Shown: positions 10,539 through 11,816 of the stretch, piece after piece
How the letters are laid out: each line of letters opens with the position of its first letter
Position numbering within the stretch: position 1 is the first letter of the stretch
From: a virus
Lineage: Duplodnaviria > Caudoviricetes
Virus record (IMG/VR): IMGVR_UViG_2595698685_000001
Span: 32,001-96,000 of that record
Reading direction: 5' to 3' (one strand)
DNA length: 64,000 nt
Translations under genes and position numbers: made by a program
The notes under the pieces: model-generated
Database searches by the model: none
Seen by the model: only the letters and a program-made list of their open reading frames with translations
Told to the model about the DNA's origin: nothing

Positions 10539-10895
10539 AGTTTTAAGGTAGCTCTATCCTGATAGCAGCTCAGAGGTACTAGAGGCTATATCTTATGAGC
10601 CTATAAACCTTGACCTGAGATTTGATAAATGCTTTGTGTTTTGTGCTTTTTGGTTTAAACTTTTATCTCTAAACTTTCAGCGCTAACCTTTAAACTTTCA
10701 TCTATGAGCTTTTAAGGGTCTGCTTCGCAAAGTAGACAACAATAATATCATACTGTATAGGACACAAATCCTAATCGGTATTGATAATCTCTATTAGATT
10801 ATGTTTTGGTTAGCCACTTAGTTTAACCTCCGGTGTGGCTAGTTAGAGGTAAGATATTTTTAGTTTCACTAAAAGAACAGAACTACCTTAAAACT
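10539..10895 (-). ncRNA. ~357-nt structured RNA with pseudoknot and 7-nt repeat array
   Basis: 22-bp closing stem 10874-10895/10539-10560, all three non-WC positions are G:U on the minus strand. Confidence 0.8.
10629..10712 (-). repeat. 12 x 7-nt degenerate tandem array, consensus AAAG-NNN
   Basis: AAAGCTC ATAGATG AAAGTTT AAAGGTT AGCGCTG AAAGTTT AGAGATA AAAGTTT AAACCAA AAAGCAC AAAACAC AAAGCAT. Confidence 0.85.
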
Positions 10896-10913
10896 GCCCT
10901 ATCTCTAGGGCAG
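10890..10913 (-). terminator. hairpin with short U tract (weak terminator or processing site)
   Basis: CTGCCCTA-GAGA-TAGGGCAG-TTTT. Confidence 0.55.
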
Positions 10914-10921
10914 AAGATACG

Positions 10922-11560
10922 TTATGCTACTTCGACCGTAGTCTTAGCATTGGACTCAGATAGAGCATAGTCCACGTTCAACTCAAAATCTTCAATCTCC
11001 TTTACAAGAGCTTCGATTTTATCCGCAATGCCGATTGGATCTAGCAGGGATGGTGTGCCCTGAGTCTTAACAGGATCTGTTAAAATATCCAGATCTGCAT
11101 CTGTTAGCTTGCGATCTTTACCTGTAAAGGCATTAGAACGCATTTGTTCAATCTTAGCATTGAAGTTATCAGAACGTTTAGTAGCTTCTGAATCCCCAAC
11201 AACTTTCGCACGCTGTAACTGTGCAAGGAGTTGCTTACGATGTGCAATACTGCGCTTCATCTCAATAGCTGCCGCTACTGTGTAAGACTTATCTCCAATC
11301 GTTACTGTAGTAAGGGCGTTTGAAGCAACTACAGCAGCCTTGATAGCAGCACGCTGTGCAATCATGTCTTCAACACTTTGAAGTGCAGAGACGATGCCCT
11401 TTTCTACTTCCGCAACAGAAGAGGAAGTACCCACAACAGTAGCAAAGTTACCCGTACCCTCGATATGGGCTAGAAACTTAAGGCGAGGAAGTTCACGCTC
11501 GATCTTAGCTTCCAGAGACTTTGCAGTTGCCAGTGCTTTAGTAATTGTCATCGTAGTCAT
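10922..11560 (-). CDS. helical/coiled-coil protein, DIP1984-like by eye
   Basis: MTITKALA..K.LE.KI, SNALTTVTIG...TVAAAIEMK, LLDP, VDYALSESNAKTTVEV; AGGAGA RBS. Confidence 0.75.
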   Translation of the reverse strand: MTTMTITKALATAKSLEAKIERELPRLKFLAHIEGTGNFATVVGTSSSVAEVEKGIVSALQSVEDMIAQRAAIKAAVVASNALTTVTIGDKSYTVAAAIEMKRSIAHRKQLLAQLQRAKVVGDSEATKRSDNFNAKIEQMRSNAFTGKDRKLTDADLDILTDPVKTQGTPSLLDPIGIADKIEALVKEIEDFELNVDYALSESNAKTTVEVA

Positions 11561-11604
11561 TTGTATCTCCTAGTTTATCTTTGAAATTTAATTTAGTATT
11601 TGAA

Positions 11605-11757
11605 TTAATAGTCTAGTGGCTTGACAAGCCCATTAGTAGCTCGTGACAGTAGGGTGTAAATTTTGCGCATACCTGCTAGCTGCACTTGACCTTTACGAAC
11701 TGCTACTTCAACAGACTCTTTAGATGAACTCTTACGCGGCTTTTTAGAAATTGGCAT
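11605..11757 (-). CDS. 50-aa basic protein, below the ORF-track cutoff
   Basis: MPISKKPRKSSSKESVEVAVRKG..., AAGGAA RBS, directly after a promoter. Confidence 0.65.
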   Translation of the reverse strand: MPISKKPRKSSSKESVEVAVRKGQVQLAGMRKIYTLLSRATNGLVKPLDY

Positions 11758-11787
11758 TTTGTTTCCTTTTATTCAAATTAGACAGAT

Positions 11788-11816
11788 ATTATATCTGATT
11801 TCAGGGTGTTTAGCAA
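11788..11816 (-). promoter_or_regulatory. sigma70 promoter
   Basis: TTGCTA-17-TATAAT. Confidence 0.8.

Follow-up and report, generated by a model that had tools for sequence, protein, structure and literature searches.

Eleven TRAP subunits form a beta-sandwich ring, which controls attenuation by reading (G/U)AG triplets in the trp leader mRNA; in TRAP, as in HutP, each RNA motif is read by one subunit of a homo-oligomer. The CsrB/RsmZ RNAs carry GGA motifs in hairpin loops, in variable number and spacing, and CsrA is encoded elsewhere. Type III toxin-antitoxin systems (ToxIN-like) contain tandem RNA repeats of about 36 nucleotides (nt) upstream of an endoribonuclease toxin gene. For the VIPR system, the consulted part of its description reports a phage RAMP protein that holds the GGY of 5-nt repeats, while the hypervariable NN read DNA discontinuously; the vrRNA comprises 9-16 tandem YNNGG repeats and a pseudoknotted conserved part, is encoded next to the protein gene and is mostly viral or proviral (10.64898/2026.04.26.720920). 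The locus analysed here lies in a 64,000-nt stretch of a virus genome of the Caudoviricetes (positions 32,001 to 96,000 of IMG/VR record IMGVR_UViG_2595698685_000001; this whole stretch is referred to as the window). On its minus strand, a gene for a helical protein of 212 amino acids (aa) is followed by a 357-nt non-coding RNA with an array of twelve 7-nt units (heptads), and an initial annotation of the sequence had proposed that both belong to a new ribonucleoprotein system. The analysis showed that RNA and protein gene are one two-part module, which recurs in large virulent phages and stands alone in bacterial chromosomes, and that the RNA almost certainly represents a genuine RNA family.

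Relatives of the protein were found in 728 phage records, from T5-likes, Vequintavirinae and Erwinia jumbo phages to phages of Pseudomonas, Vibrio, Bacillus, Lactococcus and Clostridioides, and a cut-off of E <= 0.001 gave no fewer than 1,983 matching protein clusters. The window was pooled with 80 IMG/VR loci and four named phage records, and at 85% identity of the downstream DNA these sequences fell into 38 clusters. In these clusters, the gene is followed on its 3' side by a gap without long open reading frames (ORFs), mostly 300-500 nt in length, and the 38 representatives have an RNA architecture in common: a closing stem comes first, then a CGAA-like motif and an H-type pseudoknot; variable hairpins and an A-rich repeat array follow, and an AAAU-hairpin-CUG domain leads to the return arm of the closing stem. 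The RNA starts 3-60 nt past the stop codon in most loci. The 212-aa gene lies beside the RNA in all 38 clusters, while the next commonest neighbour was present in six loci. The tie between RNA and protein gene put forward in the initial annotation was thereby borne out, this gene being the sole conserved neighbour, and a closing stem, covariation and a 7-nt period downstream of the homologous genes all proved to be family-wide features. In four apparent exceptions (L050, L054, L072 and L080), insertions precede the 3' domain, which lies 600-900 nt downstream. On one of these IMG/VR contigs (L054, positions 2606-2860), a stem-closed run of AAAAGG hexamers stands right after the gene and the usual 3' domain follows about 600 nt further on; in L072 and L080, repeated GC-rich elements take the place of the AAAAGG-type run. 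In the T5 record, only a promoter is annotated in the gap downstream of the gene.

Read from the transcribed strand, the segment is an RNA whose structure is under selection. A 396-nt stretch folds at -112.3 kcal/mol (z = -5.75), and none of 100 shuffled sequences folded as well. Structure tests for the family were performed on an alignment of 34 non-redundant RNAs (A3). For the ends of the segment, a 22-bp stem with three G:U deviations had been noticed at the outset and interpreted as a sign of selection on RNA pairing. All 22 positions are paired, three of them as G:U, compared with a mean of 10.3 and a maximum of 14 in 20 shuffles, and closing stems beat shuffles in most RNAs of the family. 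The sequence of the arms differs among lineages and the pairing is retained. Family-wide, a finder with no bias towards either strand counted 106 G:U pairs against 59 A:C mismatches (p = 3e-4); this excess speaks for pairing on the gene strand, in agreement with that interpretation.

The nested 3' stem, the pseudoknot and the hairpins of the initial annotation were likewise recovered inside the segment. The first five pairs of the outer stem of the 3' hairpin are formed in 34, 34, 34, 34 and 30 of the 34 sequences, and double changes occur 8, 15, 18 and 6 times at four of these five pairs. The covariation score of this hairpin is 0.56, against 0.22 for shuffled alignments (none of 500 reached 0.56) and 0.09-0.21 when the pairing partners were slid. 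Pairing is weaker in the inner GGT/ACC helix, at 56% among the 34 RNAs. For the pseudoknot, the finder gave a mean score of 30.0 over the 34 RNAs versus 19.2 after shuffling, and 22 of them exceeded the 95th percentile; the stems vary in sequence by lineage, and their order and loop lengths are constant. By eye, ACCA or GCCA, resembling the 3' end of a tRNA, follows the second pseudoknot stem in about 14 of the 34 RNAs (window positions 10807-10810). A role of this ACCA as a tRNA-like 3' end was considered and dropped, as the motif is not universal and is replaced by CCU, ACA or UUCA in other lineages.

Terminal inverted repeats of 22 bp enclosing short tandem units might also be expected of an element acting at the DNA level, for instance a mobile element of the miniature inverted-repeat type, or a series of DNA sites bound by a protein. 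Such an element is scarcely conceivable, however. It is present as a single copy in the window, its position and orientation behind the same gene are constant, its arms diverge yet still pair, with the G:U excess on the gene strand, its stems covary, and a period of 7 bp does not match the DNA helical repeat.

The counts first given for the array hold, with A at position 1 in 12 of 12 units, G at position 4 in 10 of 12 and an exact AAAG in 7 of 12. The reading of the three following bases as a free triplet did not survive the comparison of 146 units from the 34 RNAs: U occupies the second position after the G in 82% of the units, and the third position holds a pyrimidine (C or U) in 78%. The first position alone is unconstrained, which leaves just one or two free bases per unit. 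The phasing is visible both with and without reference to the motif. AA[AC]G spacings peak at 7, 14, 21 and 28 nt (65, 61, 29 and 28 counts), with few in between, and the motif-free autocorrelation of the 95 nt before the AAAU reaches 0.46, 0.43 and 0.38 at lags 7, 14 and 21, compared with about 0.22 off-period; in the 5' domain it is flat at 0.26. Lag 7 or 14 was the top lag in 26 of the 34 RNAs. According to a heuristic chain finder, 18 of 34 phage representatives have arrays of 12 units and 27 have 11-13; among 40 bacterial clusters, 27 have 12-13 units, whereas shuffled arrays have a median of 2. That the number of units is fixed at about 12 throughout the family is compatible with the reading of one unit by each protein subunit.

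Conservation was compared within four clades (25 T5-likes, 17 Lysinibacillus, 9 of the Bacillus pumilus group and 6 Brevibacillus). AAAG is the most conserved part of the RNA, with an identity of 0.95-1.00 in the four clades. The non-AAAG positions of the array showed identities of 0.974, 0.759, 0.805 and 0.791, versus 0.869, 0.645, 0.644 and 0.768 at synonymous sites of the gene. The free array positions are thus under mild constraint and not diversifying. These results bear on the proposal, made in the initial annotation, of a discontinuous guide RNA, in which the protein would hold AAAG in a VIPR-like manner and the variable bases would jointly read a gapped nucleic-acid target. The architecture of the vrRNA, as far as described in the part of the source consulted, offers a parallel (repeats, a pseudoknot, phage encoding and an adjacent protein gene; 10.64898/2026.04.26.720920). 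The unit logo and the conservation of the free positions nevertheless disfavour the proposal: a programmable guide is unlikely because each unit has one or two free bases at most and these positions are not hypervariable in any of the four clades, unlike the NN of the vrRNA. Moreover, the predicted protein consists of long helices with no RNA recognition motif (RRM) core, and the chromosomal copies of the RNA are single. Taken together, we regard a guide function as very improbable.

In bacterial contigs, taken at one genome per species, 167 stretches encode a relative of the protein. The carriers include Lysinibacillus, Brevibacillus, the B. pumilus group, Paenibacillus, Clostridia and cyanobacteria, and 80 of the stretches were kept for analysis. 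A covariance model of the 3' domain (R1), built from phage RNAs only, matched 73 of these 80 loci, always on the gene strand and about 180-640 nt beyond the end of the protein match; the window is matched once. One of the seven loci missed by R1 (L088, from Brevibacillus) has a variant 3' motif by eye. Of ten neighbouring ORFs scanned from five bacterial loci, seven were assigned to ordinary chromosomal families (permeases, an S-layer-homology protein and PARG among them) and one to a SUKH-4 immunity domain, with two giving no match. Because the neighbours are mostly ordinary chromosomal families and several copies of the RNA end, by eye, in a terminator-like hairpin and a T run, the unit is read as a stand-alone two-part module and not as prophage cargo.

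No arrays of RNA copies were seen in the chromosomal loci, apart from one tandem pair on a Parabacteroides contig (L134), where R1 matches at 2338-2410 and 2700-2768 stand behind one gene and may represent a tandem duplication of the RNA. A search of 151 Bacillota genomes with R1 gave five matches at E <= 0.01, which, as R1 is a weak model, say little about the absence of RNA copies without the gene. One was a known locus with the gene upstream and another (L195) had no protein match. The remaining three (L192, L193 and L194), considered as gene-less copies, lack heptads and apparently lie in coding sequence, and were counted as false.

RNA data were available for T5 (locus L026), in which the arms of the closing stem are predicted at 2648-2668 and 2984-3004. 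In one T5 RNA library, an adaptor was found directly before 2642, a 335-nt contig covered 2673-3007 and word depth was higher on 2642-2702. In the library of a second study, a contig ended at 2992, followed by adaptor, and the next T5 RNA contigs begin at 3019 and 3029. The discrete RNA of about 350 nt expected in the initial annotation is therefore hinted at, though not proven, by contig breaks near both predicted ends, while two of the four RNA runs (X1 and X5) spanned the whole T5 stretch in one contig.

Breaks at both ends of the element would also be produced by a cis-acting 3' element of the mRNA, or by an intergenic insulator or processing site, whose closing stem would serve as an RNase III-type site and control the stability or translation of the flanking messages. 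The short distance between stop codon and RNA in most loci is compatible with such an element, as is the window itself, in which the 3' arm of the RNA stops one base short of the ribosome-binding site of the next gene, encoding a SleB-like protein. Several observations speak against it. Downstream genes vary among loci, several bacterial copies terminate in the hairpins and T runs seen by eye, and the RNA is conserved above the synonymous sites of the gene. A length of about 350 nt, a pseudoknot, about 12 phased units and a covarying 3' domain also far exceed what a processing site needs. Such a cis-acting role is considered quite improbable.

The protein was modelled with AlphaFold2 from 33 sequences with a predicted local distance difference test score (pLDDT) of 92.6. 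The model is built from five long helices; it also has four short strands, each four residues long, which can be read as lying together at one tip of the predicted bundle. Its top structural match was 3KDQ, an uncharacterised Corynebacterium diphtheriae protein which we take to be the solved structure of the DIP1984 family (VIA-align Z 11.2, root-mean-square deviation 6.7, 150 of 152 residues; next entry Z 7.4), although for helical bundles a VIA-align Z below about 13 can reflect a common arrangement. Foldseek gave E 3.7e-3 and a probability of 1.00 for 3KDQ, and a profile search against PDB sequences gave E 0.035. With the NCBIfam model of DIP1984 (NF038048, cut-off 70 bits), the window protein had no match at E <= 1 and the phage genome none at E <= 0.001, and a bacterial homologue (L102) reached merely E 0.33 and 11.1 bits. 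The resemblance to DIP1984 noticed by eye in the initial annotation thus stands at the level of the fold, while it is not supported by the family model.

Invariant and near-invariant residues of the protein include R70, K74, K102, K14, N81, N204, S80, S201, T7, T84, T94 and T207. They are mostly basic or polar, and are placed at helix ends and in the strand-bearing tip of the predicted bundle. PHROG 1491, to which the protein belongs, is labelled 'tail fiber protein'. In the ESM Atlas only unnamed clusters were found, and these point weakly to DUF6847 (16% of members, score 0.86). The window protein had no match among the PADLOC defence families; a TIR-like PADLOC match (E 0.003) in one bacterial homologue was weak and was disregarded.

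From these elements, the following mechanism is proposed. A stable non-coding RNA would be co-transcribed with the mRNA of the 212-aa gene and probably cut from it. Its array of about 12 AAAG-N-U-Y heptads would remain single-stranded, held and protected by the structured ends of the RNA, and the predicted DIP1984-fold protein would bind this array with the tip of its bundle, where conserved polar and basic residues lie, each subunit taking up a single heptad. Some 12 subunits, or six dimers, could then form a defined particle on each RNA, as TRAP does on (G/U)AG repeats. Judging from the sequences, direct binding of the RNA by the neighbouring protein has a slightly better than even chance of being correct, and the assignment of one subunit to each heptad is more tentative, falling somewhat short of even. 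As a whole, the mechanism is given an even chance of being the best explanation. The place of the module in tRNA gene clusters points to a role of the particle in RNA or tRNA metabolism rather than in programmable targeting.

Several points weigh against this mechanism. It is the strict co-occurrence of gene and RNA by itself that supports a ribonucleoprotein, and the same co-occurrence would also be expected of an RNA that forms a regulatory 3' portion of the mRNA for the protein. With a median isoelectric point of 6.0 and a median net charge of -1, the protein is mildly acidic, which is unusual for a protein that coats RNA; it matched no RNA-binding family, and no Pfam or NCBIfam model reached its cut-off. 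In 8 of the 34 RNAs, neither lag 7 nor lag 14 is on top, and in the relatives from Bacillus phages (L046 and L057) successive units lie 14-22 nt apart and another lag exceeds lag 7; the unit counts depend on the chain finder. As the stems were located by complementarity search beside conserved motifs, the pair counts lean towards structure, the sequences in the covariation tests share ancestry, and the E-values of R1 are rough. Finally, the RNA evidence from T5 consists of contigs, which show neither levels nor strand, and the two runs with a single contig are uninformative on the ends.

The acidic character of the protein would be easier to reconcile with a sponge or decoy RNA, the AAAG array of which titrates a single-strand RNA binder or ribonuclease of the host (S1, Hfq or a defence RNase), with the protein acting, for example, as a stabiliser or chaperone. 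CsrB/RsmZ and CrcZ act through repeated short single-stranded motifs. The phage copies also lie among tRNA genes, where phages keep counter-defence tRNAs as well, such tRNAs being reported in the part of the source consulted (10.1101/2023.03.15.532788). However, the hosts of the module span enterobacteria, Bacillota and cyanobacteria, and because they are so distant the target would have to be universal. In addition, no partner other than the protein gene accompanies the RNA in every case, a unit count fixed at about 12 suits a defined assembly better, and no convincing match to a PADLOC defence family was obtained. A sponge is accordingly rated as unlikely, and the particle of protein and heptad RNA is retained as the preferred reading.

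One cyanobacterium and 15 of 301 Bacillota genomes have genuine DIP1984-family genes, which score above the family cut-off. Directly 3' of the gene, a conserved non-coding element of another kind, about 190-240 nt long, is present in 13 of 14 loci (L166 and L168-L180), with the motifs GGTAGC, GGCGAG and TACC..GYRCTG, a G-rich end GAGGG(T/C)GGG...GG and no heptad array. It had no Rfam match and no R1 match. A pseudoknot was seen by eye in several of these elements and was not retained, as only 1 of 13 scored above the 95th percentile of the shuffles. From a MAFFT alignment of poor quality, RNAalifold recovered no more than 8 pairs, and these covary little. The element is possibly a second undescribed protein-RNA pair, and it suggests that RNA partnership may be common to the whole fold superfamily. 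Proteins with the DIP1984 fold could then constitute a large unrecognised RNA-partnered superfamily, in which one branch places about 12 subunits on twelve AAAGNUY heptads and the genuine branch is paired with a second RNA of about 200 nt. We hold this extension to be doubtful at present, though by no means far-fetched. If it is true, both RNAs, both complexes and their cellular role are all undescribed.

The source phage is T5-like, with a 122-kb genome bearing terminal repeats. The nearest named relative is Pectobacterium phage DU_PP_V (Demerecviridae), with 66% nucleotide identity across the region. The promoter, both ORFs and the short hairpin of the initial annotation were all located on the minus strand where it had placed them, and the features of the locus are listed in Table 1. 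The promoter probably governs transcription of the 50-aa ORF and, beyond it, of the 212-aa gene and the RNA. As only 3 promoter-like sites were found in the region, compared with 3.9 expected from shuffles, the promoter count alone is not significant. The 50-aa ORF is confined to T5-like loci and therefore stands outside the conserved module. A terminator scan of the region called none, and the G+C hairpin between the 212-aa gene and the RNA was not scored as a terminator.

Table 1. Features of the heptad RNA locus, in window coordinates.
Feature	Position	Strand	Evidence and remarks
Sigma-70-type promoter	11788..11816	-	TTGCTA-17-TATAAT; 10/12 consensus matches; upstream of 50-aa ORF, 212-aa gene and RNA
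50-aa basic ORF	11605..11757	-	PHROG 5252, E 3.6e-4; counterpart of T5.086; found in 3/38 loci
212-aa helical protein gene	10922..11560	-	PHROG 1491 (T5.085), E 6.2e-71; conserved partner gene of the RNA
Short G+C hairpin	10894..10913	-	CTGCCCTAGAGATAGGGCAG; between 212-aa stop codon and RNA; only four T after it; absent in T5
Whole non-coding RNA, 357 nt	10539..10895	-	From 5' arm to 3' arm of closing stem; fold, stem and family architecture
5' arm of 22-bp closing stem	10874..10895	-	Pairs with 10539-10560
H-type pseudoknot	10811..10850	-	[ACCTCT]aac(TAGCCAC)acc[GGAGGT]taaactaa(GTGGCTA), then ACCA; finder score 32, shuffles mean 15.9
Variable hairpin region	10714..10810	-	Fold and family reading; tRNA gene at the same place in two relatives (L051, L108)
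Array of twelve 7-nt units	10630..10713	-	In-phase 7-mers; family consensus AAAG-N-U-Y
Conserved 3' domain	10566..10623	-	AAAU, hairpin, CUG; outer stem CTCAGG/TCTGAG at 10619-10569; model R1 55.8 bits, the window sequence itself being a seed member of R1
3' arm of closing stem	10539..10560	-	Pairs with 10874-10895
SleB-like cell-wall hydrolase gene	10073..10525	-	PF07486, E 1.5e-23; context only, 3 loci

The module adjoins the edge of a cluster of 18 tRNA genes on the same strand, and the module was also found in tRNA arrays in other phages and in cyanobacteria. In the window, the tRNA genes extend over 492-8981 (minus strand), with 18 called by ARAGORN and 16 by Rfam, three of them for tRNA-Lys (two CTT, one TTT). 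In two relatives a tRNA gene is located inside the heptad RNA, between pseudoknot and array, namely tRNA-Thr in L051 (2738-2814) and tRNA-Gln in L108 (2198-2274); processing of such a tRNA would therefore cut the RNA in two, with the closing stem joining the pieces. Two further minus-strand genes flank the module in the T5-likes. The gene at 11817-12497 encodes a protein with an Rv2179c-like 3'-5' exoribonuclease domain (E 1.7e-11), and the one at 9615-10064 belongs to PHROG 1460, labelled 'tRNA amidotransferase', with a sub-threshold YqeY match. This RNA-related neighbourhood is not kept outside the T5-likes.

A scan of the whole window with Rfam 15 (including GOLLD, ROOL, OLE, YrlA, tmRNA and 6S) identified only tRNAs, and at E <= 10 over 10450-11000 just two chance matches to eukaryotic long non-coding RNAs appeared; ARAGORN found no tmRNA in the window. 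RAGATH-27 (RF03100, cut-off 76.1 bits) was tried as a candidate and rejected, its best hit in the phage genome having 14.1 bits (E 2.07) on the opposite strand, and at its gathering score it was absent from 35 related loci. The literature was searched by titles and abstract openings, with subscription journals outside the coverage, and yielded no account of the gene-RNA pair. As far as these searches reach, the RNA and its link to the protein gene are undescribed, and neither RNA nor protein has a family in Rfam, Pfam or NCBIfam. Even in T5, a classic model phage, neither this abundant-looking RNA nor its partner gene is annotated. If a defined particle is assembled on the phased array, bacteria and phages would possess a ribonucleoprotein of a new kind, and the location of the module inside tRNA clusters, sometimes with an embedded tRNA, may bear on the tRNA arrays of large phages. 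If genuine DIP1984 genes have an RNA partner, the function of a structural-genomics orphan becomes testable.

Compared with described systems, the module is set apart from ToxIN-like type III toxin-antitoxin loci, which were considered and rejected, by its 7-nt units, by their position downstream of the gene and by the lack of any PADLOC model matching the window protein. With GOLLD and ROOL it shares the features of a large structured phage RNA, often beside tRNA genes, but those RNAs are not known to possess a protein gene dedicated to them as partner, nor a phased array of repeats. CsrB/RsmZ likewise gather many copies of a short motif on one RNA, to which many copies of CsrA bind, whereas the heptad motif is single-stranded, phased and fixed in number and has its protein gene adjacent. 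The DIP1984 family (NF038048; 3KDQ) is related to the window protein as the best structural match and has a non-coding element after its gene; the window protein is about 60 residues longer, and the DIP1984-linked element is without heptads and ends in GAGGG(U/C)GGG...GG. As far as the consulted part of its description goes, VIPR is similar in its minimal locus, with an RNA beside a protein gene, short repeats with constant and variable positions, and a pseudoknot. It differs in its 5-nt YNNGG repeat, against a period of 7 nt and the unit AAAGNUY here, and in its hypervariable NN, against non-AAAG positions conserved at least as well as synonymous sites in all four clades. Vipr itself is a RAMP protein with an RRM core, a G-loop and a thumb, while the predicted protein lacks the beta-alpha-beta-beta-alpha-beta core. 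Unlike TRAP, the protein of the module is a predicted helical bundle and its RNA is separate, stem-closed, about 350 nt long and pseudoknotted, with no regulated gene evident. Nevertheless, the heptad RNA resembles the trp leader of Bacillus read by TRAP, and the hut RNA read by HutP, in presenting a set number of short single-stranded motifs at fixed spacing.

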